DNA of 64,000 bases from Candidatus Latescibacterota bacterium (lineage in GTDB: Bacteria; Latescibacterota; UBA2968): positions 5,088,001 through 5,152,000 of the forward strand of contig OZ242320.1 of the NCBI GenBank assembly GCA_965208125.1. The letters run 5' to 3'. The translations under genes and the position numbers were made by a program. Shown piece by piece: positions 1 to 61,111 of the stretch. The notes beneath the pieces were generated by a model, which saw only the letters and a list, made by a program, of their open reading frames with translations, was not told where the DNA came from and ran no database searches. Every line of letters begins with the position of its first letter. Within the stretch, counting starts at the first letter, position 1.

Positions 1-857
1 GGACCATCGATATTGTACGAATGGATATCGCTACTGATGGTATCGGGCGGAAAACCATCTTCCATCGCAGCGCGCCCCACGTCGTAACTAAAACTGCCCA
101 ACCCGTGACCAATGTCAAAAATCACCCCGCGATCGCGCGCATCCCATGCCTCGGAAATCACCTTTCCCCGATTGTCGATAATCGATGCGGGCTGTGTACC
201 GTGAAAACAATGGGTCACAATATCGCCCGGACGCAGAGGCTGAATCAGGTCGCGCAAAGGCACATCGGCATTGCTGATATGAACCATCAGGGGTTTCTCG
301 CACCGATTGGCGGCCTCCAGAGCAATTTGCAACAAATCGCGTATATCCGCATCGCCGCCCACACCTTTGTACAAACGCACCTTAACGCCCAGTGCTGTTT
401 TCGGGTGATTCAAAACCGTCTGCGCGCATTCACTGGCCGACACATAGCCTTCATATACCATCTCACCACGCCGCCAGGGCAACCCAACACCCGACAGATT
501 GACATAGGCCAAAATACGCGTTGAAGACGGCTCCATTACATAGCGCTCCAATCCGCGATAATTAATCCATCCCGCTGTCCCCGTATCAACGCTCGTTGTC
601 ACCCCCGTGCGCGGGCACAGGTCATCGGCCTCTATACCAAAACTCGATACATCTTTGTACACATGGGTATGCAAATCAATCAGCCCCGGCGTCACGAGAC
701 ATCCGCCTGCATCAATTACTGAATCGGCTTCCCCTAAATCGCGCCCAATAGCTGCTACTACGCCCCCCTTCAATCCCACATCCAATGCGCCCTGCACACC
801 ATTAGCCGGGTCCATCACCGTCCCACCTGTTATCAACACATCGTATTGATCAGCCAT
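1..857 (-). CDS. Amidohydrolase/deacetylase family metallohydrolase (dihydroorotase-like), 3' end outside window
   Basis: Not in ORF track (runs off the edge). Manual translation from ATG at 857: MADQYDVLITGGTVMDPANG...CLVTPGLIDLHTHVY...GVTTSVDTGTAG (HxH metal motif). AGGAGA RBS upstream. Confidence 0.85.
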   Translation of the reverse strand, partial: MADQYDVLITGGTVMDPANGVQGALDVGLKGGVVAAIGRDLGEADSVIDAGGCLVTPGLIDLHTHVYKDVSSFGIEADDLCPRTGVTTSVDTGTAGWINYRGLERYVMEPSSTRILAYVNLSGVGLPWRRGEMVYEGYVSASECAQTVLNHPKTALGVKVRLYKGVGGDADIRDLLQIALEAANRCEKPLMVHISNADVPLRDLIQPLRPGDIVTHCFHGTQPASIIDNRGKVISEAWDARDRGVIFDIGHGLGSFSYDVGRAAMEDGFPPDTISSDIHSYNIDG

Positions 858-865
858 ATATCTCC

Positions 866-1864
866 TCACGATCGCTCTGCAATATAAGTTTCCGCATCGA
901 TTTTTCCCGAGGCAATCAAATCGCGGAACAGCGCCACAGTTTCAGCCACGCCTTCTGTCAGCGGCTTGTGCGCCACTGTGCCAATTGCAGCCTCCAATCC
1001 ACTCCCATCGACTTCCTGGGGAAATGGCAGCTGGATATCTTCAAACGTGATCTTATCCACAGCTTCAGGCGCTGCCCGATCAATCGCATCCTTCACATCC
1101 TGCATATCGGGTGCAAATCCGCCCAAATTAAATGCCCCAGCTCCCTCGTAATCGGCCCTTGCAGCCTGAATAAACGCCCGCGCCGTATCATCGGCATACT
1201 GAAAAACCGTGCGCCCACCATAAGAAATGTGATAGGGCAAATTCGCAGCAGCAGCGAGCATGGCCGTCGTTGGCGTTGAAGTAATACCCTGATCGCGCCC
1301 CACCCCATAGACCACATAGGGCCGAAAACCGATAGAAGATACTCCCTCGTCGAGCCAATACACATGCGCGGTTCCCTCATTCGCCTGTTTGTACACGCCG
1401 TAATGCGTATGGGGCATCAGCGAGGAATCATCTTGCATCACAGCGCCCGGTTCGTAATCTTCGGGCGCGCCAAAAACAGCGACAGAACTCGCATAGACCA
1501 CTTTGCCAATATGCTCTTGCCGGCGTTTCACAGCTTCAAAAACATTCGCGGTACCCACCACATTGACGCGCGCACCGAGCGGCGGATCGGCTTTGCAAAA
1601 CGGCACTTGAAGTCCTGCCAGATGAATGACATGCGTAATCTCATTATCGTCTAACGCCCGTTCAAAAGTGGGCAAATCCGCAATATCGCCAGCCACAAAA
1701 TTTACCTGCGCCAATTCGTCATCTGACAGCAACAATTGCAAGCGCCGAGGCTCTGTCGCCAGATCAAATACCGTGACCGGCACCCCTTCGCGCACCAGGT
1801 TATGTACAGCCCATGCGCCAATACACCCCAATGCACCCGTAACTAAAAAACGCTCGTCAGCCAT
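866..1864 (-). CDS. NAD-dependent epimerase/dehydratase (extended SDR)
   Basis: LVTGALGCIG Rossmann motif, HLAG, YASSVAVFG, YGVYK (YxxxK). Confidence 0.9.
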   Translation of the reverse strand: MADERFLVTGALGCIGAWAVHNLVREGVPVTVFDLATEPRRLQLLLSDDELAQVNFVAGDIADLPTFERALDDNEITHVIHLAGLQVPFCKADPPLGARVNVVGTANVFEAVKRRQEHIGKVVYASSVAVFGAPEDYEPGAVMQDDSSLMPHTHYGVYKQANEGTAHVYWLDEGVSSIGFRPYVVYGVGRDQGITSTPTTAMLAAAANLPYHISYGGRTVFQYADDTARAFIQAARADYEGAGAFNLGGFAPDMQDVKDAIDRAAPEAVDKITFEDIQLPFPQEVDGSGLEAAIGTVAHKPLTEGVAETVALFRDLIASGKIDAETYIAERS

Positions 1865-1938: not shown

Positions 1939-4383
1939 TTAGAACAACAAGACCGATACCGACTTCTGGATCATGGCAATGGACACCGATGCCATTCCCA
2001 CAAGCGCCATGCCCACGGAAAAGCCCACCATCAACACCGCCGCATAAATGCGCCATTGTTGCTTGCCAAAACGCTTCCAGAAATAGTAGCGAGCAATCAG
2101 CGCGCCGATGATCTCAGTGATCATAAAATGCGGAATACTGGTCAAACTACGTATATAACCAAAGATGAGCAAAATGGGCAACCCAAACAGGGACAAAACA
2201 ATGAAGAATACAAGCCCAATGGCAAATCCGGTGGTAATAACCCAGGGTTTTAGAGCCTCGAACAAAATGGGCTTATCATCTGACGACTGCAAAAATGCCC
2301 CATCAAAAGAAGGCACTTGATCAATCTCGTATTGATAGAACAATTCTCGGCCCTGAGGATCCATCGCTCTGGAAATGACCATTTCAGGATTTGGAGTACC
2401 CAGGTGCGCGCCATCGTCCGCACTGCGTATTTCTGGCGCAGAAGGCAACCCCTGTACTAAAGCATCGGATATATCGGGCGGAGCGCGACTCATTGTTGAG
2501 GGCGAGTATGGCGGGGTTTGTGCACCATCAAAATTGGTGTAAAAATAAGCAGTGCTCGACCACGGGCCATACCTGCGCTCTTCATCGGGTACACTATCCG
2601 GGTCATCAGGCGTTGCCCGCACCCGCCAGTACCACCACGCATTATTCGACAAATTCGCCGGTGTCCACGTTACAGTGCCCTCTTGAGAATAGTCAACTTC
2701 CCCGCGCATGGTACTGGTGATCCACACACACCGCTGAAGGGCGTTCAACGGCCAGAACAATTGCACATAGGGATACGCATCGGAAGGAATGGGTGCGAGT
2801 TTCCAAATATAGGACCAGTACATAAAACTGGTCAGAAAAACCAGAGGCACCATAAAGATCTCTGCCTTCAAAATACTCCTGAAGCTGGTACCCGTCAACT
2901 CAATCTCTCGAAAACGCTGCGCTGCCGCGCCATAGTTATCCAGGCCAAAATCCACAAACCAGATCTCAATCCCCCGGAAACCACTGAGAAAAATGGTCGC
3001 TTGTTTAATATATGGGATGCTCACGTTTTGCCCTACCAAACCATCTAAGCGGGCATTGACAAATGAAATGAGGGGTGTGTACACAAATGCAAAAATAAAG
3101 AAAAAGATCAGTAGAGTGACGGTGACCAGTTGCGGAAAAAGAATTTTTGACAGAACAATGGTGTACAAACTCGCTATACAAAACAACACTACGCAAATCC
3201 AAATCCTGAAATCACCTCGTCCGGGCGGCGTTTCCCACGATCCCTTCTCGGTCTTTTCAATCCGCGCGGTTCGCACTCCCCGCCACACCTGATAAAACCC
3301 AATGACGGTAATGGCAAATGTAATGCCAATGCCAAAGCTCATCCAGAAATCAATACCCGTCACAAAGTGCGTCTGGATAGTATCCATTCCCATAAACCAG
3401 TGCGGCATAAATCCATAATGGTGTAAAATGGGGCTTGCAATTGTATGGATCACCACGCCTATAAAAGCCCCCATCACGGCCCAGAATGGGGCGAGAAAAC
3501 CCGCAAAAATGGGTCCCAGGTGTAGGGTAAAGCCCAGGGGTGTTGCGGGCAAAAAATATCCCGTGTATTGCGTGAAATCGACAAATGGGATCGGGATGAG
3601 TTGCACGGGCTGTTCCATAAACGCACCCGAAATAGCCGGTACAGCTACATAGAGCATTCCCCACACCAGGCCAATCACCGCACCGACAGAAAACATGCGC
3701 CAGCGCCACGTGATATCTCCACTGCTTTCTTCTGCCAATGCCATAGCCCCCTGTGCAGCGATAGGTGCAAATGGAAACGGCAACTTCTCGTAATCGGATG
3801 TGATGCGGAACAACACATAACTGGCAGAAAACCAAGCAATGCGTCCCATAATTGTGCCCAACACCAGCAATGCAATGGGCCAAAACCAATCGGCATGTAA
3901 AAACGTACGCTCGATCAGCGCCTCGGAATTTGCCTTCGGCGCGAACCACCACAATTCGCCCAATGCCTTTTGTATGCCAAATTGCACGACTGCGGGCGAC
4001 TGCACAAAATACTGATTCCACAACAGACCTTCAAAGGCATTGGACTCCCGGTTGACCAGCGCAATCGTCACATAATACAACAGATAAATTTCCTGTCGCT
4101 TGAGTACAGTAAACGAGCGCTTTGCCAATTCGATGAACAAAATAATCGTGACCCACTGCGCCGCCGCGCCAATGGAGCCGCCGATCATCAGTTCCAGATA
4201 AATATTGCCGGGCACCATCACAATCGACACAAATAATGCACCCACAATGGTCTTTGCATTAAAGCCTTCGGCAAATTCATCGGGCGTTTCGAGCAGATCG
4301 CGATATTCTTCGATCTCTTCAAACTGCGTATTTTTCTTTGGTTCTTTGTCTTTGTTGCGTCTTAAAAGATTGCCTAAAGCCAT
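1939..4383 (-). CDS. OPT-superfamily-like multi-pass membrane protein (putative peptide transporter) with a large inserted soluble domain
   Basis: Many hydrophobic helices; EKLPFPFAP motif resembling the OPT/DUF6785 'ERLxFP'; PIPSDAYPY segment; hydrophilic insertion at about 2275-2700. Confidence 0.7.
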   Translation of the reverse strand: MALGNLLRRNKDKEPKKNTQFEEIEEYRDLLETPDEFAEGFNAKTIVGALFVSIVMVPGNIYLELMIGGSIGAAAQWVTIILFIELAKRSFTVLKRQEIYLLYYVTIALVNRESNAFEGLLWNQYFVQSPAVVQFGIQKALGELWWFAPKANSEALIERTFLHADWFWPIALLVLGTIMGRIAWFSASYVLFRITSDYEKLPFPFAPIAAQGAMALAEESSGDITWRWRMFSVGAVIGLVWGMLYVAVPAISGAFMEQPVQLIPIPFVDFTQYTGYFLPATPLGFTLHLGPIFAGFLAPFWAVMGAFIGVVIHTIASPILHHYGFMPHWFMGMDTIQTHFVTGIDFWMSFGIGITFAITVIGFYQVWRGVRTARIEKTEKGSWETPPGRGDFRIWICVVLFCIASLYTIVLSKILFPQLVTVTLLIFFFIFAFVYTPLISFVNARLDGLVGQNVSIPYIKQATIFLSGFRGIEIWFVDFGLDNYGAAAQRFREIELTGTSFRSILKAEIFMVPLVFLTSFMYWSYIWKLAPIPSDAYPYVQLFWPLNALQRCVWITSTMRGEVDYSQEGTVTWTPANLSNNAWWYWRVRATPDDPDSVPDEERRYGPWSSTAYFYTNFDGAQTPPYSPSTMSRAPPDISDALVQGLPSAPEIRSADDGAHLGTPNPEMVISRAMDPQGRELFYQYEIDQVPSFDGAFLQSSDDKPILFEALKPWVITTGFAIGLVFFIVLSLFGLPILLIFGYIRSLTSIPHFMITEIIGALIARYYFWKRFGKQQWRIYAAVLMVGFSVGMALVGMASVSIAMIQKSVSVLLF

Positions 4384-4404
4384 AGATTGTCCCGTGTATA
4401 AATA

Positions 4405-7400
4405 CTATGCATTGACCGCTGCTGTAGAAGCAGAGAGCAATTCCCGCCCTTTATCCGTGTATTTGGCACGATTGGTTGGATCAACTGTTCGCCAGATCAA
4501 AAATTGTTTGCGAAGCGCGTTCATAAACCCCTGATTGCCCCGTCGCCACGATGCCACATCGCCCGAAAGCCGATCTATTGTCAGCGCCATCGCAAAAATA
4601 TTGTGCTCGCCTGTGGGCACGGCTTCAAAATGTACCTGTTGACTCACGCCCAAATCATAAGGTGCCAACCATATTGTCGTATCAATCGTATATCCCGCGC
4701 CAGTTGCTGCTTCAACCGAACCAAATCGCGCACCATCTGTATAAAACGCGCCCATGGACTCGCCCATGTGCGACTCAAAATAATCCACCAGAAATACCGA
4801 CAGCCCAAACACATCTTTACCGCCTACGGTAAATGGAAACTCAAAATGCCAGTGATCGCCTTCCGGATCGGGCAACTTCCAGCGACGCGTCACATCGGGC
4901 ACAGCCATAAGTGCCGCCTGACGCGCGGGATAAAGCGATGAAATCAAAACCACGACCATCACCAGGGCTGAAGAAATAACAGTTGACAATGCCGAATAAT
5001 TCACATTAAGCCCTTGCAACAACTCCTGCCACAATAAAATTTTGATCACTCCCTGACCGAGCAAATACCCTGCTACAGTACCCAATACGGCATAAACACA
5101 CGCCTCGGCAATAAACAAAAAAGAGATGTGTACAGGCGCCAACCCTACAGCAGAATAAATACCAATCTCGCGGAAGCGCTCGTAAACCGATCCCATCATC
5201 GTATTCAGCACAATCAACGCAGCCACCAGGATGGGAACAAACAAATTGGCAAGGCCGGGCAATGTTCCCCACCCCATCGAACTGTAAATTGACACCTGGA
5301 TTTTGCCATCTGCTTTTGGAATGCCCGCGTACACCACCACCGACAACCGCGACACATATTCTTTGACCTGTTCTTCGACATTTACATCTTCGCGCAAACG
5401 AATTGCTATAGATTGCAGAGGGCTACCCACTTCTCGCAATATATTATAGGGAATAATGGCAATATCGTCGGGATCAATATGCTCGAATGGCATGTTCTCG
5501 AGCTGGGGCTGTTCCAGACCCTGTTTTTCGCGACTCTCCTGCTGGGTCATCCGAGAGACGATCTCATCATCCGTCAGCTTAAAATCCGCCGGACTCATAA
5601 TCTCGCCATCCAGATCTTCGTAATCGCGCATTTTTTCCGCATCGATCAACCCCACGACTTTCAATTGTTTGCCAAATAAGCGCACACTTTTTTTGCCGAC
5701 ATCTTCAGGCTCCACCTCGAGCAATCCGGCTATTTTGCCGGGCAAAATACACGCGATTTCACCCTCTTCAAACCATCGTCCCTGGCTCAACAAGGTATCG
5801 ATCCCCGTGACCGCGGGTTCATTGACCGATAGTCCCAATATGCCCAGCACTTTGGTCGTTTTTTCAGGCGTTTCAATAGGTGTCTTTTTTAAGTCTTGCG
5901 TAACATACCAGCTACGCGGCGCAATCTCACCCTGATCAAAAAAATTGATGCGGGCATAATCATAAGACGTATCCTCCAATGGCCCCCAGAACTGGCTGCG
6001 AATCAACAGTCCCGGATACTTGCCTTCGATATCATCCAGTGGAATTTGATAAAAATCGAGCGTTGTCTTAATCGACGTAAAGGACAATACGGTAAATGTC
6101 AATAAAACCAGCGTGGCAAATGTCAGGCTGGTACGCATTTTGCGCTTTTTCATGTTCGCAATGCCCAGCTGAAATGCCGCCACTGACGCGCTTATACGTC
6201 CCACATCGGTATCGTGCAACAACACCTCTTCTGTGCGTAACCGCCGGATATTTTCGTGAAACCGCCCCGACACAATGGCAATCACAAAAATCGCCAGTGC
6301 AAAAATCACAAAAGCCAGCAAAATCACAAACGGATTGGAGAGATCAAATGCGGGATGCACCTGAGAAAGAACGATCCAGATCACCACAAAAGCCGCGCCA
6401 AAACCGCCGATTTGCAACCGGATATCGGAAAAGGTAAAAATCAACCGCTCGACAAAAAACGCACATGGAATGACCAGTATCATAAAGAAGATCACACCGC
6501 GAATCACATCGTTTTGCGTTGCTTTCACATCTGGATAGGCGCGCGATTCGAGGCCCATGCCCGCGCGTGTGTGTTTGACAAACAAATCCCATTTTTTGTC
6601 TTGCATCGCCTCTTCGGCCAGATCCAGATGCTCTTTAGCCTGGGCGTGCAAACTGGTCATTCGCTGGTTTTCAATCGAATACTTCGCCAATTCGCGCATC
6701 CGCGCCTCGTTCAGCGTCCACATATCTTTTGCGGCCTGGAACGAAGAGTGAATAAACGCCCCACCGTGTTGCAAGGTCTGAAACCCATCGCCGCGCGCGA
6801 CTTCCACGCTTTCGGCACTTTTTGAGTTCAGCAACATATAGCGTACGCCTATATCCAGGGATCTTCCCCCCAACCGCATCACAATTTTGATCCGTTCGCC
6901 CGGCGTTGTAAAAATGGTTCCCACCGGTTCTTCTGGACCAAAGCCGACGGCATAGCCGTATTCCTGCGGTGCCGTATTGCCGGGACCGAGTACGCTGATG
7001 CTCGACAATTTGGATAAATAACGGGGATCGACTGTTTCGTAAAAATCCGTTGCAATACACGGGAACAAAATCCGCGTGCGCTTGGATATCCACCAGTCCA
7101 TATTAAACTCACCCCGGTATATGCGCGCCTGGCGACCGTGATTGGGCGCGTACGTGATCTCCCCACTTTCTGGATCCATATAAAAAGCCTTCACATCCAC
7201 GCGGCGTTCGGCAATGCCCGGCATGTAAAATTCGCCATTTTCATCTGCAATGTCGTAATAGACGCGACGCACGCCTTTGATCGATTTGTCAACACCCATT
7301 CGCAGCGAAGCCACAGCACCGGGGCGGGGGCGATCAGGGGTAATGCTCAGTCGAGGAAATGTGCGCACAAAACCCTTTAATCCGCGCATGCGATCATCGG

Positions 7401-8934
7401 GATCCAGCTTGTAATCGGGCAAAAAATCTTCGGAATTTAGCCCGAGATCGAGCACGCCTGCAAGCAGACGTATCTGCCCGGTGAGATTTTTGAAATTCAC
7501 ATGTTCGGATTTATCCAGTGGGGTATCCACTCTAAAACGCGCGTCGTTGACCGTAATGAGCGATAGCGCCGGCGTGCCCGCTTCCAAAACGACCTCACCA
7601 TCTGTTTTCAGGATTTTCCCCGGAATATACATATCCCAGTTCATGCCGCCTTTTGGATTGATCCCATCGATGAGGGCATCGGCGGGGTCCAGATCAAATC
7701 GCTCGGCTATCGCCTCTGAATAATGTATAAACGACTTGCCAAATGGCGTGAAGAAACGCTTGTAATAATAATTGCGCGTACTGTTCCAAACCCCGATTTC
7801 ATCTGTCTGGCTCGTCAAATCCAGAGAAATAAACAGTGGCAACTCGAGGGGTTCGGTCATCAAAGCGGCAAAATGTTTTTCTTTGCGCGAATGCCTGCTC
7901 AAAAAATCGCAAATACCTCTGAAGCCGAGATGATGCCCAGAAGATGCGAGAAATAAAAGCGTGTGTTTGGGCGGGTACTTGCTGAAATATTCGACCAACT
8001 TCATCATGCCCACAATCCCACACGCCATTTCTGCACCCGGCGCGAGCGCGGGCACCACGGACATGGCATCGTAATACGTATTGATCACCACGATTTTTTC
8101 GCTCAATACGGGATCGGTTCCGCGAATCCAGCCCAAAATATTCCGGGTCTCTTTCTTTTCCCAATCCATTCGCGCCTTCAAAGTGACATTGATCTCATCC
8201 TTTTGCGCAATCAATTCCTTCAGTTTTTCGCCACTTGTCTTATCAATCCAAAAACGCTCTACACTATTGGGCACCTGCAAAAATTTAGTCTCTGCCTGCG
8301 CGGTAAACGTGGAGTCGGGTTCGATAAACACAATCTGCTGCGCGCCGAGCATGGCGGCATTGAGCCAGTTGTTCCACGAATTAAATTCCATCAACACCAC
8401 CGCACCCTTTACATTGCGTCCATTAAATTCCGATACATCGCCAGTGCCGCCCCACAAGAGATGTCCTTTCACGCCTCCCGAGGGCAAAGTGGTCGTCTTG
8501 ACCAGATTGGGCCACAAACCGTGAATGGTAAATACCTCGCCGGTATCTTCCACCTTTAAGCTGCCGCCCCGGTCTATGGGCACGGCCACGTCATACGTCT
8601 CGGCTTCTACGTCTTCCAGGCCAAAACGCCGAAATTCAGCTTCTATAAAATTCGCGATTTTTTCGTGACCCTCATAACCCACCACGCGCGAGCCGTATTG
8701 CGTGAACTGCTCCATCAACGTGCGAATCCCGTCTTCGCGCACGGCATCCAAAACCCGTGTGCCCACTTCCTCTGCTCGCGGAACGAGTATAGGAGGAACC
8801 TCGCCGGGCATTTCCAATCCCAACAGGGCAGCTATACGGGGATTTACGCGATAGGGACCGGCAATCAGGAGCGCGGTGACAAAAATCCCCAGACCGATGA
8901 GGCTCCAGATGATGTGCTTGTAATATTTATCCAT
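4405..8934 (-). CDS. Fusion of M28 peptidase/PA-like domain with MacB/FtsX-type ABC permease
   Basis: N-terminal TM, SRVVGYEGH, NILGWIRG, YYDAMSVVPALAPGA (M28-like); NMKKRKMRTSLT (MacB/FtsX first TM motif); VYERFREIGIYSAVG...LFIAEA...YPARQA (FtsX permease motif). Confidence 0.8.
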   Translation of the reverse strand: MDKYYKHIIWSLIGLGIFVTALLIAGPYRVNPRIAALLGLEMPGEVPPILVPRAEEVGTRVLDAVREDGIRTLMEQFTQYGSRVVGYEGHEKIANFIEAEFRRFGLEDVEAETYDVAVPIDRGGSLKVEDTGEVFTIHGLWPNLVKTTTLPSGGVKGHLLWGGTGDVSEFNGRNVKGAVVLMEFNSWNNWLNAAMLGAQQIVFIEPDSTFTAQAETKFLQVPNSVERFWIDKTSGEKLKELIAQKDEINVTLKARMDWEKKETRNILGWIRGTDPVLSEKIVVINTYYDAMSVVPALAPGAEMACGIVGMMKLVEYFSKYPPKHTLLFLASSGHHLGFRGICDFLSRHSRKEKHFAALMTEPLELPLFISLDLTSQTDEIGVWNSTRNYYYKRFFTPFGKSFIHYSEAIAERFDLDPADALIDGINPKGGMNWDMYIPGKILKTDGEVVLEAGTPALSLITVNDARFRVDTPLDKSEHVNFKNLTGQIRLLAGVLDLGLNSEDFLPDYKLDPDDRMRGLKGFVRTFPRLSITPDRPRPGAVASLRMGVDKSIKGVRRVYYDIADENGEFYMPGIAERRVDVKAFYMDPESGEITYAPNHGRQARIYRGEFNMDWWISKRTRILFPCIATDFYETVDPRYLSKLSSISVLGPGNTAPQEYGYAVGFGPEEPVGTIFTTPGERIKIVMRLGGRSLDIGVRYMLLNSKSAESVEVARGDGFQTLQHGGAFIHSSFQAAKDMWTLNEARMRELAKYSIENQRMTSLHAQAKEHLDLAEEAMQDKKWDLFVKHTRAGMGLESRAYPDVKATQNDVIRGVIFFMILVIPCAFFVERLIFTFSDIRLQIGGFGAAFVVIWIVLSQVHPAFDLSNPFVILLAFVIFALAIFVIAIVSGRFHENIRRLRTEEVLLHDTDVGRISASVAAFQLGIANMKKRKMRTSLTFATLVLLTFTVLSFTSIKTTLDFYQIPLDDIEGKYPGLLIRSQFWGPLEDTSYDYARINFFDQGEIAPRSWYVTQDLKKTPIETPEKTTKVLGILGLSVNEPAVTGIDTLLSQGRWFEEGEIACILPGKIAGLLEVEPEDVGKKSVRLFGKQLKVVGLIDAEKMRDYEDLDGEIMSPADFKLTDDEIVSRMTQQESREKQGLEQPQLENMPFEHIDPDDIAIIPYNILREVGSPLQSIAIRLREDVNVEEQVKEYVSRLSVVVYAGIPKADGKIQVSIYSSMGWGTLPGLANLFVPILVAALIVLNTMMGSVYERFREIGIYSAVGLAPVHISFLFIAEACVYAVLGTVAGYLLGQGVIKILLWQELLQGLNVNYSALSTVISSALVMVVVLISSLYPARQAALMAVPDVTRRWKLPDPEGDHWHFEFPFTVGGKDVFGLSVFLVDYFESHMGESMGAFYTDGARFGSVEAATGAGYTIDTTIWLAPYDLGVSQQVHFEAVPTGEHNIFAMALTIDRLSGDVASWRRGNQGFMNALRKQFLIWRTVDPTNRAKYTDKGRELLSASTAAVNA

Positions 8935-10918
8935 AGCGATGTACCCAATGCCCGCGTTCTGGGAACCAGATCATGTCGATACCCAATGACAAAGCCACGC
9001 CGAGAATATATCCGACGAGCAAACCGATAAACAAAGGTCTGGATTTGCGATAAACCGTTGGACCGCCTACTTTTATGATGACAAACTTAATCAACCAGGC
9101 GAGAAAAGTCGTAAAGCTGGTGCGTCGCGCCAGATAAGAACCCGAAATCGCCAGACCCACGGGATGCAGCGGCCACCACACAAAGCGATAGCGCATATAG
9201 ATCAACCCCGCCATCAAAAGACTCCCAATACCCAAAAATACCACTTCTTCGGGATGTTCTTCATAAAACGGTGGCTCGTCGGGCTTTTTGAGTGCATCAA
9301 CCGTATGCTGAAAATGGCGTTCGGCTGCCCGCGTAATCTCCCAACTGTTAAAATTATAAGCCCCTTGATCGTAACCCAACCATACGGTGAACAACATATT
9401 GAACAGCAAACTGACCATAAACACCAGTCCAAGCGCCCCCATCAGCCGCCGCCGCTGATTGCCGGGAACGCCCTCGGAAACGCGCCCGGCATGGGAAAGC
9501 GCGGGCAAAAACAAGCCCTTGAAATTTTCGGTGACCAGTACGGAAAAGCGAAAAGCGACGAGGGTGGAAAGCGATATATTGCGCCTTCCATAAAACGATG
9601 CGACCAGACTCCATGCACCAATGGGTTTGCTCGCAAATGGCATGCCAGTATCGGCGATGATCTTCGCCATACCCGTATAGACAAAAATCACTGCCAGAAT
9701 GTATAAAAACCCTTTCAGCGGATCGAAATTCATCTGCGTCAGCCAGACAAATAAATACGCTATGCTACACAGCAAACCGATGCAAGCGGCGCGATAAGAC
9801 ATCAATTCTTCGGAGTCATCCACCGTGGGATCTCTCCCGAGTGCCTTCATCAACACATCGCGCAAATGTTTTCTCGCTACCCAGAAGGTCGAACCCACAA
9901 AAACGACAAAAGCCCCAACAGTCTGCCAGTAATAAACACCCGCGCGATAATAAGGCGTGGTGGCTTTATAGCCCCACTTGCTGAGTTGACCGCCTTCAAG
10001 GATGAACACCAGATCAAAAAACCAGATTGAAAACAGAACATCCAGACTGGCAAAATAAGAAAAGAGAATGGTAAAAATGCCAAAAAATCCCCTGATAGGT
10101 GGCAGTTGCCAATCAATCCAATACCAGCGAGACCGGTAAATGGGAAAACGCGGAAAGCCCGGCAAAAAGTAATTGATACAATTCCACGCCAGCACGCCAA
10201 ACGCAATGGCAAATCCGATCCAGAACAAGCGATTGCGCGTAAACTCGGGCAACCATCCCTCACCATCGCCCGGTTCAGAAGCCATATCGATCAATGGCGC
10301 CATCGCGGGAAAAACCAGACGTTCGTTTTGCACCCATTGTTTTCTAAAAACAGTAGCCACACAGGCCAGCATTAAAAAAGCCGCCGCCACAACCGTCGTC
10401 CACCAGAACAGGGGCAATATCCACACGCCCCAGGGGATAGTAGCACCGCCAGGCAAGCCTTCGTAAAACCACGCAACGGCATTGCCCTCGTGGCTCGGCA
10501 AGAGCCAGTTGGGCAAAAGCGGATGCAGGTGCTCGGCCCACTGGTTTTCTTCCGTAGCAAAATAATAAGGTGCCGTGATATAGCCGATCAAATAACCCGT
10601 CATGCCAAAACACGGCAGTGCTGCCCCCACAAGACCCATCGCCAAAATCGCATGCCATTCGCCTTTTGAAAGAACCCAGCCGGTCATTTTGGCAACAATG
10701 GCGAGTCCGATCATCAGAATCATCAGCACGATCAACATGGCCATTGGAATGTGACTATACGTCATCAGCGAAGCGTGCAAGACGTAGCGCACGTACATAG
10801 CCAGCAGATCGAGAGCAATGACGAGAAATACGCCCAATCCCACAGCACGCAATGTTACCGCGGGCTGTGAACTCGCATCGTCTGCTTCTGTCTGAATATT
10901 TTGTGTATCAAGAGCCAT
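8927..10918 (-). CDS. DUF6785/DUF6784-type integral membrane protein (OPT-like)
   Basis: Highly hydrophobic; FRKQWVQNERLVFP and C-terminal WWPLHPVGLA...PLFIGLLVG motifs; 8-bp overlap with the next gene's start. Confidence 0.75.
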   Translation of the reverse strand: MALDTQNIQTEADDASSQPAVTLRAVGLGVFLVIALDLLAMYVRYVLHASLMTYSHIPMAMLIVLMILMIGLAIVAKMTGWVLSKGEWHAILAMGLVGAALPCFGMTGYLIGYITAPYYFATEENQWAEHLHPLLPNWLLPSHEGNAVAWFYEGLPGGATIPWGVWILPLFWWTTVVAAAFLMLACVATVFRKQWVQNERLVFPAMAPLIDMASEPGDGEGWLPEFTRNRLFWIGFAIAFGVLAWNCINYFLPGFPRFPIYRSRWYWIDWQLPPIRGFFGIFTILFSYFASLDVLFSIWFFDLVFILEGGQLSKWGYKATTPYYRAGVYYWQTVGAFVVFVGSTFWVARKHLRDVLMKALGRDPTVDDSEELMSYRAACIGLLCSIAYLFVWLTQMNFDPLKGFLYILAVIFVYTGMAKIIADTGMPFASKPIGAWSLVASFYGRRNISLSTLVAFRFSVLVTENFKGLFLPALSHAGRVSEGVPGNQRRRLMGALGLVFMVSLLFNMLFTVWLGYDQGAYNFNSWEITRAAERHFQHTVDALKKPDEPPFYEEHPEEVVFLGIGSLLMAGLIYMRYRFVWWPLHPVGLAISGSYLARRTSFTTFLAWLIKFVIIKVGGPTVYRKSRPLFIGLLVGYILGVALSLGIDMIWFPERGHWVHRYG

Positions 10919-11132: not shown

Positions 11133-11208
<76 letters not shown>

Positions 11209-11320: not shown

Positions 11321-11395
11321 GGGCGACCACAGGGGGTCGCCCCTACAAAACCAGATTAATAATCTCATCGTAGGGGACGGCCCCTGTGCCGTCCC
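11321..11395. repeat. Pair of inverted GTAG-family REP elements (REPIN-like)
   Basis: GGGCGACCACAGGGGGTCGCCCCTAC (11321-11346, minus orientation) and GTAGGGGACGGCCCCTGTGCCGTCCC (11370-11395); each is GTAG followed by a palindrome. Confidence 0.75.
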
Positions 11396-11412: not shown

Positions 11413-12204
11413 TTACAAACTCTGCGCAACCCGAAACCCCACATAAAGGCTCCCGGCAAAGGTACTATGTCGGTCGCGAGTAGCCGAGCGAAGGAAATAT
11501 CCTTCCAGGTACCATGCACCGCCGCGCACCACGCGCGCAGTGCGATCGCCGACCTCCCACGCAGACCCGTCATTGGGTGCCCCCACATATCTATTATTAT
11601 ACCAATCCTGAGTCCACTCCCACACATTGCCGTGCATGTCGTGAAGGCCCCAACTGTTGGCCTCGAACGATCCCACAGGTGCTGACATCTCATTATCCCA
11701 CTGACTGCCGCACCCATTGCAATTGGCGCGGTTGTGACCGAGATTATTCCCCCAGCTATACCTCGTCGCCGTTCCCGCACGCGCCGCATACTCCCATTCA
11801 GCCTCGCTCGGCAAACGATAGTTCTTCCCCGTCTGCTCCGATAACCAGGCAGTGTACGCCACCGCATCATCCCATGTGATGTTGATCACGGGACGCCGTC
11901 CTCGCCCAAAACCCCTATCATCTGCTCGCTCGCGCCCCGTTGCATCTGTGAAAAGATCGTACTCCTCAAATGTCACCTCGTACTTAGCCAGCGCGAACGA
12001 TTTAATCGTCACCTCATGCACTGGCCTCTCGCTATTATTACAACTTCTCCCCGAGACGCACCCCATCTTAAAACTTCCCGCGGGAATCACCACCATCTCC
12101 GGCGTTTTAAAAGAAGCCCCTTCCTCCTGTGAAACACGAGCGGATGTACCCGTGAAAAATCCCAATAAGACGAGAACAAAAATATTTCTGATCACACTCT
12201 GCAT
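11413..12204 (-). CDS. FGE-sulfatase (SUMF1)-domain secreted protein, lacking catalytic cysteines
   Basis: Signal peptide; PEMVVIPAGSFKMG, RLPSEAEWEYAARAG, GLHDMHGNVWEW, RVVRGGAW...GFRVA. Confidence 0.9.
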   Translation of the reverse strand: MQSVIRNIFVLVLLGFFTGTSARVSQEEGASFKTPEMVVIPAGSFKMGCVSGRSCNNSERPVHEVTIKSFALAKYEVTFEEYDLFTDATGRERADDRGFGRGRRPVINITWDDAVAYTAWLSEQTGKNYRLPSEAEWEYAARAGTATRYSWGNNLGHNRANCNGCGSQWDNEMSAPVGSFEANSWGLHDMHGNVWEWTQDWYNNRYVGAPNDGSAWEVGDRTARVVRGGAWYLEGYFLRSATRDRHSTFAGSLYVGFRVAQSL

Positions 12205-12293
12205 GATATATATCTCCTGTAATTATTACCTGATAAATGCTCATAAAAAAAATAAGACAACTTCTTATTGGTGAAAAGTACATATTTTACCTA

Positions 12294-13031
12294 TTAAGGT
12301 GCATCGCGTTTTATGATGGTCACATTGACCAGGGCACCGGGGCGGACATACTTTCCCGCATTCAAAAAAAGACCCGTTACTTTGCACGTCCCATTTTCCG
12401 GATCAATAACAGGACTGATCCCGACGACGCGCCCGGGCAACGCGCGCTTTCCGCTGGCGGTCGGCACCGCAGACAGCGACATATTCATTCGGATCGCGTT
12501 CAGCCTCTTCTCGGACACAAACAGATGCACCTGAAGGTCCCTGGGGTCAATGATCCGAGCGACCGCGGAATAGGCCAGTATCCAGTCACCTGCCTTTACA
12601 TTGACCTCAGCCACCATTCCGTCCTGGGGTGCGATGATTGCGGTTCTGTCCAGTTCCATACGCGCGGCGACCCAGTTATAGTGTGCGACCTCAGCATCGA
12701 AGCGAACATTTTCAAGCTGCTGGTCACTGATCAGTTTCTTCGCGTGCAACATTTCCAACCGCGCTTGCAGAGTCTGGGTCTTCTTCAGTGCAATTCGAGC
12801 CGCAGTTTCCTTCACGCGCAAATCCCGGCGGGATAATACCATGAGGGTATCCCCTTGAGTCACCCGGTCTCCCACCTCAAAGTTGACCTGCTGCATCCAC
12901 GCGTTCATCCCAGCATAGACGGTCGCCGATCGCACAGGTATTAAAGGCGCCCGCAACATCAGTTCTTCTGCCTGGATCCTTGCGGCAATGAGCATGAGGA
13001 TGCCGCACAGAAACATCGCGTTGTATATCAT
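12294..13031 (-). CDS. Efflux RND periplasmic adaptor (membrane fusion protein)
   Basis: Start moved to ATG 13031 (AGGAG RBS, signal-like N-terminus). EVGDRVTQGDTL lipoyl half, coiled coil, IIAPQDGMV...VKAGD, ISPVIDPENGT, VRPGA. Confidence 0.8.
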   Translation of the reverse strand: MIYNAMFLCGILMLIAARIQAEELMLRAPLIPVRSATVYAGMNAWMQQVNFEVGDRVTQGDTLMVLSRRDLRVKETAARIALKKTQTLQARLEMLHAKKLISDQQLENVRFDAEVAHYNWVAARMELDRTAIIAPQDGMVAEVNVKAGDWILAYSAVARIIDPRDLQVHLFVSEKRLNAIRMNMSLSAVPTASGKRALPGRVVGISPVIDPENGTCKVTGLFLNAGKYVRPGALVNVTIIKRDAP

Positions 13032-13254
13032 AATTGATCTCCTGTCAGACGAATACGTAACACACCCTTGAATCGCACGTTTTTGCGTTTCAGAGCATCG
13101 ATCTCTTTCTGCTTTTCCGCCAGTTTTCTCTCTACTTGCTCCAGTTTCAGGTAATGCACGGGGTGGTATTGCTGGACGGGTTGCGGGTGACTGGTGAACC
13201 ATGAGAATACCCTCCTGTATGGGTTAGAATTGAAACTTCGTGCCCTTCATATAG

Positions 13255-13271
13255 GGCAAAAACCGTGCCAA
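13255..13271 (-). promoter_or_regulatory. Sigma54 (-24/-12) promoter
   Basis: Minus strand reads TTGGCACG-GTTT-TTGCC, matching the YTGGCACG-N4-TTGCW consensus in spacing and at all but the last base. Confidence 0.8.
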
Positions 13272-13348
13272 AATTTGACAAAAACCCGTAACTGACTGCG
13301 GGAGAGCGTGTTTTTTAAAAAATGCTGAAAAAAGAATCTGCGGGAAAC

Positions 13349-13405
13349 TGTTTCAAACGAAACAGTAAGTGTTTCAAATGAAACAGTTGTGATTAGAATG
13401 AAACA
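13349..13405. promoter_or_regulatory. Tandem enhancer (bEBP upstream activator) boxes
   Basis: TGTTTCAAACGAAACA (13349-13364), TGTTTCAAATGAAACA (13370-13385) and degenerate TGATTAGAATGAAACA (13390-13405); TGT-N10-ACA type, 20-21 bp apart, about 80-135 bp upstream of the -24 element. Confidence 0.7.
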
Positions 13406-13507
13406 GGGGGATTACAGCGGAAAATTACACTAAAAATGCCCTGAAGAATACAGGGCATTTTGGAAGGTATTTGGAGCATACCATACAACGGGCTGTCATC
13501 TTGCCAT

Positions 13508-16216: not shown

Positions 16217-16255
16217 AAAAAATAGGGCAGACCTTTTGTGGCCTGCCCTGTTATT
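16217..16255 (-). terminator. Intrinsic terminator after ABC ATPase
   Basis: Minus strand: AGGGCAGGCC-ACAAAA-GGTCTGCCCT followed by ATTTTTT. Confidence 0.7.
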
Positions 16256-16310: not shown

Positions 16311-17090
16311 CTACTCAGCCGTTGGATCAAAACCTTCAATACGCCCTTCTTGAATCTCAATCTCATCCCGCCGTCTCACCCGCTCAACCTGCCCATCGCG
16401 CAAATCGACCACGCGATCAGATACCCCGAGCATCTTGTGGTCATGGGTATTGGTCACAATGGTCACACCGCTTTCGCCCTGCATCTTGAGCAACAACTCG
16501 ATAATTTCCTGCCCGGTCTTCAAGTCGAGGTTTCCTGTCGGCTCATCAGCCAGAATCAAATCGGGATCATTGGCCATAGCTCTGGCAATTGCCACGCGCT
16601 GCTGCTGCCCACCCGATAATTCGTAGGGTTTGTGATGCAGGCGGTCGGAAAGCCCCACCAGCGACAATTTGTGTGCGGCCTTTTCTTCGTAATCACTGCG
16701 CGCCATGCCCGAAAACACCATGGGCAAAGACACATTTTCAAGTGCCGACATAACGGGAATCAGGTTAAACGACTGGAAAATATACCCCACACTGTGGCAG
16801 CGCAAATAGGCAATTTGCCCCTGACTCATATCGCCCATATTGGCACCGTTGACCAATACGGTTCCTTTAGTGGGCGTATCTAATGCCCCCACCATGTTAA
16901 ACATCGTGGTTTTGCCCGAACCCGAAGGGCCCATAATTGACAAATACTCACCGCGAATCACATCGAGGTTCACGCCTTGCAGGGCATGCACTTCCTGGTC
17001 ACCCATCCGATAGGTCTTCCAGACCCCCTGGACCTTAATAATATAATCTTCAGTATCAACCTGTTGTTCAGCAGCCGATTCCCGAGCCAT
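16311..17090 (-). CDS. ABC transporter ATP-binding protein, LolD/MacB (type VII) family
   Basis: Walker A GPSGSGKTT, Q-loop GYIFQSFNL, LSGGQQQRVAIARA, LADEPTGNLD, THD. Start placed at ATG 17090 after GAGGAG. Confidence 0.93.
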   Translation of the reverse strand: MARESAAEQQVDTEDYIIKVQGVWKTYRMGDQEVHALQGVNLDVIRGEYLSIMGPSGSGKTTMFNMVGALDTPTKGTVLVNGANMGDMSQGQIAYLRCHSVGYIFQSFNLIPVMSALENVSLPMVFSGMARSDYEEKAAHKLSLVGLSDRLHHKPYELSGGQQQRVAIARAMANDPDLILADEPTGNLDLKTGQEIIELLLKMQGESGVTIVTNTHDHKMLGVSDRVVDLRDGQVERVRRRDEIEIQEGRIEGFDPTAE

Positions 17091-17280
17091 TGTGTTCTCC
17101 TCTGAAACAATAAAGTTCACCATTGAACTCCCGTATGGTAGGGAAAACCCATGAGCCTGTCAAGCCATTTTAATCCCAATGAAATTCTGCGTGATTCCAA
17201 AAGTATCTTCTACTATATTCTTAGCCTGATTTTCCTATAGCCCTGTCGCATCATCAAAACCAATACGAAAGGATCGTATC

Positions 17281-38633: not shown

Positions 38634-38699
38634 AAGGGCTTTGGGAAACAGTCGGAAAGTTGTATTAAGGAGCGGGTGATAGGTCATTGAACAAAGTAC

Positions 38700-38727
38700 A
38701 TAATAGCACAAGCCACATGAAAGTCAA
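38700..38727 (-). promoter_or_regulatory. Putative sigma70 promoter of the sprA operon
   Basis: Minus strand TTGACT, 16 bp, TATTAT with extended TG. It overlaps the longest-ORF start, which supports the downstream start. Confidence 0.45.
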
Positions 38728-40120: not shown

Positions 40121-40122
40121 CC

Positions 40123-55751: not shown

Positions 55752-55806
55752 CATAAAACACAACCTCTGTGGTTTTTTGAATCGCAACTTATCAGGAGAA
55801 TATGTA

Positions 55807-59081: not shown

Positions 59082-59116
59082 AAAAGGGAGCCAGTTTTTG
59101 ACCGGCTCCCTTTTTT
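59082..59116 (+). terminator. Intrinsic terminator after the PorV-family gene
   Basis: AAAAGGGAGCC-AGTTTTTGACC-GGCTCCCTTTTTT. Confidence 0.75.
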
Positions 59117-59142
59117 ACGTGAAGTCCGCGGACATCCCTACC

Positions 59143-61104: not shown

Positions 61105-61111
61105 AGAGCTT

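Follow-up and report, generated by a model that had tools for sequence, protein, structure and literature searches.

To our knowledge, and in line with reviews, every characterized type VII (MacB/FtsX-class) ABC system does its work outward or on the outer side of the membrane; we know of none that imports anything and of no characterized OPT protein that is tied to an ABC system. The OPT/YSL transporters (PF03169, TC 2.A.67) include barley HvYS1, whose structure has been solved (7wsr/7wst) and which is described in PMC9691689 as a proton-coupled, elevator-like carrier. Prokaryotic OPT genes often adjoin peptidase genes, one subcluster adjoins a xylanase, and peptidase-OPT gene pairs and fusions have been described (Gomolplitinant and Saier 2011, PMC3061005, in the parts used here). 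These cases resemble the locus presented below in that a peptidase-type domain is tied to an OPT-type carrier. They differ in that the peptidases, as given in those parts of the paper, are predicted to be cytoplasmic, belong to the S41, pepsin, or dipeptidyl aminopeptidase families, and come with no ABC/FtsX module. An earlier note on this DNA held that no characterized system combines an FtsX-type ABC unit with OPT proteins and, consistent with this, no description of an ABC/FtsX-type permease together with an OPT-fold carrier appeared in the publications found by our literature search.

The locus lies in a stretch of 64,000 nt (the window) of contig OZ242320.1 (GCA_965208125.1, positions 5,088,001 to 5,152,000) from Candidatus Latescibacterota bacterium. 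It consists of three co-oriented membrane protein genes (Table 1) and, as the earlier note had described, the junctions are tight: the open reading frame coordinates give an 8-bp overlap between genes 1 and 2 and a 21-bp gap between genes 2 and 3. Database searches gave at least 1016 and at least 2563 relatives, so that these are not spurious open reading frames. All neighborhood counts below refer to 57 related loci from a single phylum, the Latescibacterota.

Table 1. Features of the window (nucleotide positions) and of the gene 2 protein (residues)
Feature	Position	Strand	Description or match
Amidohydrolase/deacetylase-family metallohydrolase	3..869	-	runs off the window; NCBIfam PRK09237 1.2e-84, under cut-off
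NAD-dependent epimerase/dehydratase	866..1864	-	Pfam Epimerase 5.6e-32
Gene 3 (P0003)	1939..4383	-	814 aa, divergent OPT-superfamily membrane protein
Gene 2 (P0002)	4405..8934	-	1509 aa, PA/M28-like ectodomain and MacB/FtsX permease
Gene 2, TM anchor	residues about 6-28		N-terminal
Gene 2, PA/M28-like ectodomain and unassigned region	residues about 30-805
Gene 2, three TM segments	residues about 808-894		followed by cytoplasmic linker
Gene 2, MacB/FtsX module	TM 935-955; core about 957-1221; TM 1222-1338		complete; one TM, periplasmic core domain, three TM segments
Gene 2, conserved C-terminal domain	residues about 1345-1509
Gene 1 (P0001)	8927..10918	-	663 aa, DUF6785 and DUF6784 polytopic membrane protein
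tRNA-Phe(GAA)	11133..11208	+	antisense to cluster; Rfam tRNA 67.7 bits, ARAGORN tRNA-Phe
Terminator-like hairpin	11342..11321		after lineage-specific block
Lineage-specific block	11413..16015	-	inserted between ATPase and tRNA-Phe
FGE-sulfatase-fold protein	11413..12204	-	Pfam FGE-sulfatase 2e-61
HlyD/RND-type periplasmic adaptor	12294..13202	-	Pfam HlyD_D23 1.5e-17; NCBIfam RND_mfp 119.8 bits, above cut-off
835-aa secreted-type protein	13508..16015	-	weak match to BT3328 lyase family, 2.8e-12
Terminator-like hairpin	16249..16224		of ATPase
ABC ATPase (P0392)	16311..17123	-	270 aa; Pfam ABC_tran 7.8e-33
Promoter-like site	17163..17135		of ATPase
Xylose-isomerase-like TIM-barrel gene	17281..18105	+	sugar epimerase/isomerase type; Pfam AP_endonuc_2 2.4e-42
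Second DUF6785 gene	59098..61104		without M28/FtsX fusion

Structure models support the assignment of the gene 1 and gene 3 products as OPT/YSL-like by fold. Gene 1 matches DUF6785 (2.5e-99) and DUF6784 (6.5e-22) in Pfam, and a Foldseek search with its AF2 model (pLDDT 82.4, pTM 0.86) returned barley YS1 as the best match (7wst_A/7wsr_A, E 7e-8, prob 1.0, TM 0.60/0.65). Gene 3 has no sequence match in Pfam, NCBIfam, or the PDB; its model (pLDDT 71.6, pTM 0.70) likewise returned YS1 first (7wsr_A/7wst_A, E 1.5e-6, prob 1.0), with TM values of 0.39-0.40 by query length and 0.50-0.52 by target length, and for both models YS1 was the sole PDB match with E <0.001. Pfam OPT is reached at E<=0.01 by nine of 23 distant gene 3 relatives, eight of which exceed the gathering score, and weakly by two of 38 close relatives, and 11% of one archaeal DUF6785 cluster carries OPT as well; neither gene 1 nor gene 3 itself reaches Pfam OPT. 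The earlier note had pointed out an OPT-like ERLxFP/EKLPFP motif shared by two of the proteins, which is indeed found at residues 199-204 in each (ERLVFP in gene 1, where the conserved form is E[RK]Lx[FY]P, and EKLPFP in gene 3), the Glu and last Pro being invariant in all aligned relatives (15 and 38, respectively). The two proteins differ from OPT/YSL transporters in that they lack NPG and KIPPR, two motifs given in PMC3061005, and in that gene 3 has a beta-rich insert of ∼140 aa (roughly residues 560-705) between late TM helices, a site that in relatives is occupied by inserts of the PDZ, FGE-sulfatase, or propeller-repeat type.

By itself, the gene 2 product reaches only FtsX in Pfam (1.9e-16, residues 1232-1340) and, by sequence, MacB in the PDB (5lil, 2.7e-9), with NCBIfam FtsX matches far under cut-off; its M28, PA, and MacB_PCD assignments come through relatives. 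Peptidase_M28 and MacB_PCD were found in all four homologs scanned and PA, weakly, in one of the four, while a 16-sequence family profile matched the PA and M28 aminopeptidase 2ek8 (3.6e-13), MacB (3e-10), YwaD (3.7e-9), and, weakly, nicalin (2.9e-4), a non-catalytic M28-like membrane protein. By this route the domain calls of the earlier note were all recovered. The profile aligns with 2ek8 and YwaD (6hc6), both PA-domain M28 aminopeptidases, over ∼280 residues including the PA domain; unlike these enzymes, the domain shares one polypeptide chain with an ABC permease, and the second half of M28 remains unaligned. The eight hydrophobic segments in the hydropathy profile fit an anchor, an ectodomain, three TM segments, and a four-TM FtsX module. 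As does the corresponding domain in GCPII, TfR, and nicalin, the ectodomain sits behind an N-terminal membrane anchor. Sequence searches of the PDB gave nothing meaningful for residues 360-810 or for the C-terminal domain.

The FtsX module resembles those of MacB, LolCDE, and FtsEX in having one TM segment, a MacB-like periplasmic core domain, and three TM segments; in sequence comparisons the family matches MacB 5lil, with weak matches to LolC, LolF, and YtrF as well, and a LolD/MacB/FtsE-class ATPase is a conserved neighbor. Gene 2 differs from these systems by four additional TM segments and an N-terminal PA/M28-type ectodomain of ∼780 aa, by a C-terminal domain of ∼165 aa, and by its genomic pairing, at times fusion, with an OPT-fold protein, and the ancestral arrangement of the cluster has no adaptor or exit-duct gene. 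All three alignable M28 motifs are changed in the family (HxD to YYD, PGAxDD to PGAE(M/Q), and EE to HH). Because metal and catalytic residues are replaced, peptidase activity is doubtful, and to this extent the label "pseudo-peptidase" given by the earlier note is apt; however, the substitutes are invariant Tyr, Glu, and His, potential ligands with which the domain could, judging from the alignment, still bind metal.

DUF6785 is present in 53 of the 57 loci and is adjacent to the M28/FtsX gene on the same strand in 42, while in 11 of the 53 it lies 0.7-8.5 kb away with other genes between. The 8-bp overlap is retained in most close orthologs, and in paralogous loci the pair persists though DUF6785 is only 31-44% identical. 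In addition, single-chain fusions of the M28/FtsX protein to DUF6785/DUF6784 (five protein clusters, 1202-2135 aa) are found in several independent records. These natural fusions are strong evidence that the two parts work together and, with the conserved adjacency, support a coupling between DUF6785 and the M28/FtsX protein. Gene 3 occurs in 36 loci, 33 of which hold the full triple, and is missing from 18 loci whose downstream sequence extends over 6 kb or more; it is restricted to one orthologous group and absent from paralogous loci. One locus (L041) has the M28/FtsX gene together with gene 3 and lacks DUF6785 over the 10 kb upstream.

Several paralogous systems are present per genome. The paralog loci include arrays of signal-peptide TPR/GWxTD proteins and a GT2/methyltransferase, and one locus (L052) has lyase-like genes on its flanks. 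The second DUF6785 gene of the window is in a locus with outer-membrane receptor, sulfatase, and hydrolase genes and adjoins a PorV/PorQ-family outer-membrane protein. Since this DUF6785 is found without an M28/FtsX fusion, the carrier can do without an ABC unit.

The best NCBIfam matches of the ATPase, all under their cut-offs, are LolD (9.8e-69), DarD, YbbA, MacB, DevA, and FtsE, and intact Walker A, LSGGQ, Walker B-Glu, and H-loop motifs are readable in its sequence; it belongs to the LolD/MacB/FtsE/DevA class. It is likely the energizing subunit of gene 2. Orthologs (79-99% identity) are located upstream in 13 of the 57 loci, and in nine divergent orthologous loci the ATPase lies 0.6-1.8 kb upstream of DUF6785; it is missing within 10 kb in the other 44, among them each of the 18 paralog-type loci whose flanks are complete. 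Terminator-like hairpins, the antisense tRNA-Phe, and its own promoter-like signal indicate that the ATPase is a transcription unit apart from the three genes. Of 12 orthologous loci inspected, 10 have the antisense tRNA-Phe directly ahead of DUF6785. In the window this gene lies where the three-gene unit begins and borders the lineage-specific insertion; at L016, L020, L044, L046, and L053-L057 no such block separates ATPase and DUF6785. The TIM-barrel gene is divergently transcribed, its ortholog adjoins the ATPase in 12 of the 36 gene 3 loci, and its best NCBIfam matches, under cut-off, are IolO (7.5e-33) and psicose 3-epimerase. Downstream, the epimerase and amidohydrolase are what the earlier note had taken them for and have orthologs in 27 and 25 of the 36 gene 3 loci, respectively.

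Our current hypothesis, which we hold tentatively and rate somewhat short of probable, is that the cluster encodes an ATP-assisted inner-membrane machine that captures and imports an oligomeric nutrient around a type VII ABC unit. The separately transcribed LolD-class ATPase would energize the 1509-aa permease, whose FtsX module would move the very large extracytoplasmic PA/M28-like domain. The unfused permease would be physically associated with the OPT-fold carriers, namely the DUF6785/DUF6784 protein, joined in this orthologous group by the 814-aa protein. The ectodomain would bind, and possibly trim, an extracytoplasmic oligomer (perhaps a peptide, glycopeptide, or oligosaccharide) and, by ATP-driven mechanotransmission, hand it to the carriers, which would bring it across the membrane for catabolism by the epimerase, amidohydrolase, and sugar-isomerase-type enzymes. 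Import is weakened as a reading by the lack of any type VII importer known to us, by the replaced M28 residues, by an ATPase that is apart and often absent, by DUF6785 occurring alone, by the absence of gene 3 from paralogous loci, and by L041.

The machine could instead be directed outward or maintain the envelope, the ABC unit working on the outer membrane face to extract, release, or activate, as in LolCDE, HrtBA, BceAB, and FtsEX, with nothing imported and the OPT-fold partner supplying or flipping substrate outward or acting as a mere scaffold. This is unlikely but deserves serious consideration, given the outward or outer-face action of the characterized type VII systems known to us, the TPR/GWxTD arrays and GT2/methyltransferase of paralog loci, the PorV/PorQ-family neighbor, the nicalin match of the family profile, and the HlyD-type adaptor. 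The adaptor gene, however, belongs to the lineage-specific insert and is absent from nine divergent orthologous loci, the cluster shows no gene for an outer-membrane exit duct, the conserved downstream genes encode cytoplasmic catabolic-type enzymes, and characterized OPT-family members are, as far as is known and according to PMC3061005, importers. Rather unlikely, too, is that the modules are co-localized and mechanistically independent, with an ATP-regulated ecto-enzyme or binding protein beside ordinary proton-driven OPT-fold carriers that take up nearby released products; linkage and fusion would then reflect proximity and co-regulation, with no gating or loading. The lone DUF6785 in the same window, the dispensability of gene 3, the 11 loci with intervening genes, and the peptidase-OPT neighborhoods and fusions known without an ABC component (PMC3061005, in part) fit such an arrangement. 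On the other hand, a whole 1450-aa permease in one chain with DUF6785 in five clusters implies 1:1 stoichiometry and close membrane contact, the overlap of genes 1 and 2 is mostly retained, and the pair was duplicated jointly into old paralogs.

FtsEX-like cell-wall remodeling and recycling, in which ATP hydrolysis would activate the peptidase-like domain to cleave peptides of the cell's peptidoglycan and the OPT-fold carriers would salvage what is released, we regard as improbable. FtsEX systems control peptidoglycan hydrolases through mechanotransmission, FtsE is among the best matches of the ATPase, and a downstream amidohydrolase/deacetylase is at hand; against this, the M28 catalytic residues are replaced, the FtsX matches of gene 2 are far under cut-off, no peptidoglycan-binding or division genes lie near the cluster, and a housekeeping division system would hardly be expected in several paralogous copies per genome and in such different contexts.

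The capture-and-import hypothesis is favored by the association of prokaryotic OPT genes with peptidases (PMC3061005, in part), by the lyase-like flanks of L052, and by the receptor, sulfatase, and hydrolase genes around the second DUF6785. In some paralogs, the nearby TPR/GWxTD secreted proteins and PorV/PorQ-family protein suggest that the function may be in the envelope rather than in nutrition. For the organism, the several paralogous systems per genome and the conserved downstream catabolic-type enzymes point to a role in uptake.

The cluster comprises three long ORFs on one strand, which encode a DUF6785/DUF6784 protein (P0001), an M28/FtsX permease (P0002) and a divergent OPT-fold protein (P0003). 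The ORF coordinates reproduce the 8-bp overlap and the 21-bp gap that the earlier note had described at the gene junctions. Database searches returned at least 1016 relatives of P0002 and at least 2563 of P0003, labelled mostly as Latescibacterota; the three are real genes. Their public names are generic (FtsX-like permease family protein, DUF6785 family protein) and in one case read OPT/YSL family transporter. Among the families proposed from the sequence, DUF6785, DUF6784 and FtsX were matched directly and M28 and MacB_PCD through homologs of P0002, but Pfam OPT was matched by neither P0001 nor P0003.

Features of the window discussed in the text (positions are those of the window)
Feature	Position	Strand	Remarks
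P0003, divergent OPT-fold protein	1939..4383	-	814 aa, long ORF
P0002, M28/FtsX permease	4405..8934	-	1509 aa, long ORF
C-terminal domain of P0002	4408..4902	-	residues 1345-1509, ~165 aa
P0001, DUF6785/DUF6784 protein	8927..10918	-	663 aa, long ORF
tRNA-Phe(GAA)	11133..11208	+	antisense to the cluster, just upstream of DUF6785
Strong terminator-like hairpin	11342..11321		after the FGE gene
Strong terminator-like hairpin	16249..16224		after the ATPase gene
ABC ATPase (P0392)	16311..17123	-	270 aa
SprA_N protein	32439..38711	-	2090 aa, type IX secretion translocon-like
LptF/LptG permease genes	38846..41193	+	adjoin the SprA_N protein gene
CarboxypepD_reg and Plug SusC-like protein	52395..55751	+	neighbor of the second DUF6785 gene
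Protein without family	55777..57981	+	734 aa, neighbor of the second DUF6785 gene
PorV/PorQ-family outer-membrane protein	57997..59052	+	192 bits against a cut-off of 90
Second DUF6785/DUF6784 gene	59098..61104	+	668 aa
Phosphotriesterase-family hydrolase	61088..62152	+	neighbor of the second DUF6785 gene
Sulfatase	62215..63657	+	neighbor of the second DUF6785 gene

P0001 matches the Pfam models DUF6785 (2.5e-99, 333.5 bits, cut-off 25) and DUF6784 (6.5e-22, 78.1 bits, cut-off 26.4), and the second copy within the window also matches; the family occurs in several bacterial and archaeal phyla. P0003 gave no match against Pfam, NCBIfam or PDB sequences. Pfam OPT (PF03169, TC 2.A.67) does not reach its gathering score in either protein, being absent from P0003 even at E<=10 and from P0001 at E<=0.01, the sole threshold scanned. 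The AF2 model of P0001 (pLDDT 82.4, pTM 0.86) found barley YS1 as its top Foldseek match in the PDB (7wst_A, E 7.3e-8, TM 0.60/0.65), as did the moderate-confidence model of P0003 (pLDDT 71.6, pTM 0.70; 7wsr_A, E 1.5e-6, TM 0.39/0.50), and two YS1 entries were the sole matches below E 0.001 in both searches. The accessible text on YS1 describes an OPT-family homodimer with an elevator-like mechanism (PMC9691689). An exact-string search found neither NPG nor KIPPR in P0001 or P0003, motifs named as conserved in OPT proteins in the accessible part of a family survey (PMC3061005). Because the models adopt a YS1-like fold but Pfam OPT failed and both motifs are absent, P0001 and P0003 are, as modeled, OPT-superfamily proteins by fold and not members of the curated family.

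A BLASTP comparison of P0001 with P0003 was not significant and hhalign of the two families was weak (probability 22.9%, E 9e-4, 198 columns, with the shared motif in register), so the relationship between them rests on fold and not on sequence. The shared motif itself, as noted earlier, holds up: it reads ERLVFP in P0001 and EKLPFP in P0003, at residues 199-204 in both, and its Glu and final Pro are kept in 15/15 relatives of P0001 and 38/38 of P0003. A search of 1.84 billion representatives yielded 23 distant relatives of P0003, nine of which match Pfam OPT at E<=0.01, eight above the gathering score; weak OPT matches occur in 2/38 close relatives, and 11% of the members of one archaeal DUF6785 cluster carry OPT. 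The AF2 model of P0003 contains a beta-rich insert at ~560-705. Relatives carry various segments at this site or in the C-terminal part: FGE-sulfatase (567-647 in P0263), PDZ (~753-789 in P0242) or propeller-repeat (P0255); the FGE-type insert of P0263 occupies the same site as that of P0003, yet the two do not align.

The sole Pfam match of P0002 is FtsX (1.9e-16, residues 1232-1340, 60.6 bits, cut-off 25.5), and against PDB sequences residues 1169-1342 match MacB (5lil, 2.7e-9). The M28 similarity of the single sequence is weak, with faint matches to leucyl aminopeptidase and GCPII. All four P0002 homologs scanned carry both MacB_PCD and Peptidase_M28, the latter above the 21.3-bit cut-off in three, and one of the four has a weak Pfam PA domain. 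The profile A1, built from 16 family members, matched the PA-domain M28 aminopeptidase 2ek8 at profile positions 59-341 (3.6e-13), MacB 5lil (3e-10), the YwaD aminopeptidase 6hc6 (3.7e-9) and Nicalin 7tm3 (2.9e-4). The profile and the homologs thus place the family with M28 by sequence and fold similarity, PA domain included, and P0002 has the four-helix FtsX-type module of a type VII ABC permease. Hydropathy gives eight hydrophobic segments (~6-28, 808-836, 838-865, 861-894, 935-955, 1222-1251, 1257-1292, 1311-1338). With MacB topology as the template, the simplest reading would be an anchor, a ~780-aa ectodomain, three TM segments, a cytoplasmic linker, an FtsX module and a cytoplasmic tail, the FtsX module probably being complete with TM1, a periplasmic core domain and TM2-4. 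The C-terminal domain, which presumably lies in the cytoplasm, shows strong conservation (many of its residues are invariant in A1) and has no Pfam match. Neither it nor region 360-810 found a meaningful match among PDB sequences, the low E-values there coming only from designed propeller proteins with no accepted stretch.

In M28 peptidases the motifs HxD, PGAxD[DN] and EE provide the co-catalytic zinc ligands and the catalytic Glu/base. When A1 was compared with 2ek8, these three motifs could be aligned, the last two ligands lying beyond the alignable region, and the P0002 family was found to lack the canonical residues. HHD is replaced by YYD (Y288 and D289 in 16/16), PGANDD by PGAE(M/Q) (E302 in 16/16) and AEE by HH (H334 in 16/16, H335 in 15/16). 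As all three are altered, the canonical active site is gone; the replacements, however, are strictly conserved and are potential metal ligands, so the term pseudo-peptidase, used for the ectodomain in the earlier note, is plausible from the alignment and not settled.

A profile search of genome contigs with A1 gave 57 loci from the best 80 of 694 confirmed matches, all in Latescibacterota-type MAGs, and since these best 80 of 694 come from a single scan, the context described is confined to one phylum. Locus ORFs were called by script and compared with the window proteins and our own HMMs; genes on the same strand and no more than 200 bp from the permease gene were considered adjacent. Among the 57 loci from these best 80 matches, DUF6785 is present in 53, adjacent to the permease gene in 42 and 0.7-8.5 kb away in 11, where secreted TPR/GWxTD-type genes intervene. 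A P0003-like gene is present in 36/57 and the full triple in 33/57. DUF6785 is lacking in L015 and L023, which have no upstream sequence, and in L033 and L041, which have 5.8 kb and 10 kb of it. Within the same best-80 set, 21/57 loci have no P0003-like gene, 18 of them with at least 6 kb downstream and three with none. These 18 are paralogous systems (permease 66-70% identical, DUF6785 31-59%, 42-44% in 14 and none in L033), in which a P0003-family HMM of 119 sequences detected no gene-3-like protein. Orthologous and paralogous systems co-occur within genomes, four permease clusters coming from one 8.08-Mb contig. L050 has two tandem DUF6785 genes ahead of the permease, and in L052 DUF6785 follows it. 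This pattern identifies DUF6785 and the M28/FtsX protein as the conserved core, to which one orthologous group alone adds P0003 as a second OPT-fold subunit.

Some loci have further features of their own. In the paralogous loci L026-L040 (e.g., L035 2..9290, L031 1556..8904), signal-peptide proteins of ~760-850 aa, two to five in an array, lie around DUF6785 and between it and the permease; those of L036 have TPR repeats and a GWxTD domain, with a methyltransferase/GT2 gene upstream. L041 (OZ252228.1) has the ATPase, permease, P0003-like, epimerase and amidohydrolase genes, but DUF6785 is absent from the 10 kb upstream, and two genes of the opposite strand (401 and 507 aa) stand at its expected position.

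Natural fusions of the permease with DUF6785/DUF6784 were found in a search with P0001 among proteins of more than 1162 aa. FtsX, DUF6785 and DUF6784 are combined in five clusters of 1202-2135 aa, and M28 or MacB_PCD is also present in some of them. In P0395, the first 1456 residues align to P0002 70-1505 with 39% identity and are followed by DUF6785/DUF6784; in these chains DUF6785 is joined directly to the counterpart of the P0002 C-terminal domain. Full-length fusions of 2083-2175 aa recur across separate records, one being an NCBI entry from a Latescibacterota MAG named DUF6785 family protein, which makes an assembly or gene-calling artefact unlikely. A natural 2120-aa fusion is a ready-made cryo-EM target.

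The ATPase, a candidate nucleotide-binding subunit of the LolD/MacB/FtsE class for the permease, retains intact Walker A, signature, Walker B-Glu and H-loop motifs, and its best NCBIfam models (LolD, DarD, YbbA, MacB, DevA, FtsE) all score below their cut-offs. In the window it lies 7.4 kb upstream of the permease. Among the best 80 of 694 matches, nine divergent orthologous loci (L016, L020, L044, L046, L053-L057) have an ortholog at 0.6-1.8 kb upstream of DUF6785, adjoining a divergent sugar-isomerase-type gene. In 44/57 loci none is found within 10 kb; every one of the 18 paralog-type loci with at least 6 kb downstream belongs to these 44. Those systems must share an ATPase encoded elsewhere or manage without one. 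Between the ATPase and the tRNA, the window and its closest relatives have an inserted block that encodes an 835-aa weakly lyase-like protein, an HlyD-type adaptor and an FGE-sulfatase-fold protein. The antisense tRNA-Phe just upstream of DUF6785 recurs in 10/12 orthologous loci checked (e.g., L016 7690-7765), and an Rfam scan found two tRNAs and nothing else. A sigma-70 promoter scan (15 sites against 22.4 expected) is uninformative for Latescibacterota. Based on the hairpins, the antisense tRNA and the inserted block, P0001-P0003 make up a unit of their own; the ATPase belongs to a separate transcription unit, as a conserved neighbor and not an operon member. The 835-aa protein was also considered as a second permease, a reading rejected because it has no FtsX/TM signature and only weak lyase-like matches.

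Among the 36 loci with a P0003-like gene from the best 80 of 694 matches, 27 have the downstream epimerase ortholog and 25 the amidohydrolase ortholog, and L052 is flanked by rhamnogalacturonan-lyase-like genes. In the window, SusC-like/Plug and PorV/PorQ proteins lie on one side of the second DUF6785 gene (32% identical to P0001) and a phosphotriesterase-family hydrolase and sulfatase on the other. The SprA_N protein and the PorV/PorQ-family gene, taken together, suggest that the organism has a type IX secretion system. The accessible text of the OPT survey by Gomolplitinant and Saier places prokaryotic OPT genes beside peptidases, with one subcluster beside a xylanase, and reports two eukaryotic OPT-peptidase fusions; no ABC link is reported in that text (PMC3061005).

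The reading that we favor, tentatively, is an ATP-assisted capture-and-import assembly. By moving its PA/M28-like ectodomain, a type VII ABC unit would bind or process an oligomer and then feed it to OPT-fold carriers attached to the unit. Built on the observed architecture, folds, linkage and fusions, this assembly would include a putative pairing with the ATPase, a putative permease-carrier interface, a presumed direction of transport and a presumed substrate. OPT proteins carry out proton-coupled uptake of oligopeptides or metal chelates. A complex prediction of the P0002 TM regions (805-960 and 1222-1345) with P0001 returned a score of 0.00, a "no answer" that says nothing about binding in either direction. 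We consider a role directed outward or at the envelope unlikely. To our knowledge, type VII ABC systems work outside the membrane and carry nothing inward. The cluster contains no exit-duct gene, whereas a tripartite MacAB-TolC pump is encoded with its adaptor and exit duct. A MacAB-TolC-like efflux pump was rejected because the adaptor gene belongs to the lineage-specific insert: the nine divergent orthologous loci named above have no HlyD-type gene between their ATPase and DUF6785.

The modules could also be co-localised and mechanistically independent, which seems rather improbable to us. OPT carriers are generally regarded as self-sufficient proton symporters, and the second DUF6785 locus, which has no FtsX partner, suggests a carrier role for DUF6785 in nutrient-type loci, one that it can fill by itself. 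On the other side are the natural fusions, the strongest evidence that the permease and DUF6785 may act as one unit. An FtsEX-like cell-wall role appears highly improbable. A more novel reading, which we consider unlikely, is a hybrid primary/secondary transporter. Here elevator-type OPT carriers and a type VII ABC mechanotransmitter would be linked mechanically, and ATP hydrolysis in the cytoplasm would drive either capture/loading or the elevator stroke. The partners in such a coupling are, in some species, a single chain of ~2100 aa. We know of the OPT-type carrier fold as proton-driven only, and this hybrid, if true, would be the first case of import by a member of the MacB/FtsX class and would energise a secondary-carrier fold in a new way.

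Searches of open-access full text found nothing on DUF6785/DUF6784, on FtsX with M28 and OPT, or on Latescibacterota FtsX, and for FtsX with "OPT family" they found a general transporter inventory only; the earlier remark that no characterised system is known to combine type VII ABC systems with OPT proteins stands in that literature. The modules are known, and what is uncharacterised is the conserved, sometimes covalent link between a MacB/FtsX-class protein and an OPT-fold carrier. The Latescibacterota are an uncultured phylum thought, in the accessible text of one study, to live on algal polymers (PMC4454575). The conserved ABC-OPT pairing may extend the abilities of the MacB/FtsX class or show that the OPT fold has an accessory function not recognised before. 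Its characterization would give a first functional handle on DUF6785/DUF6784, on the Pfam-less P0003 family and on systems that Latescibacterota hold in several copies per genome.
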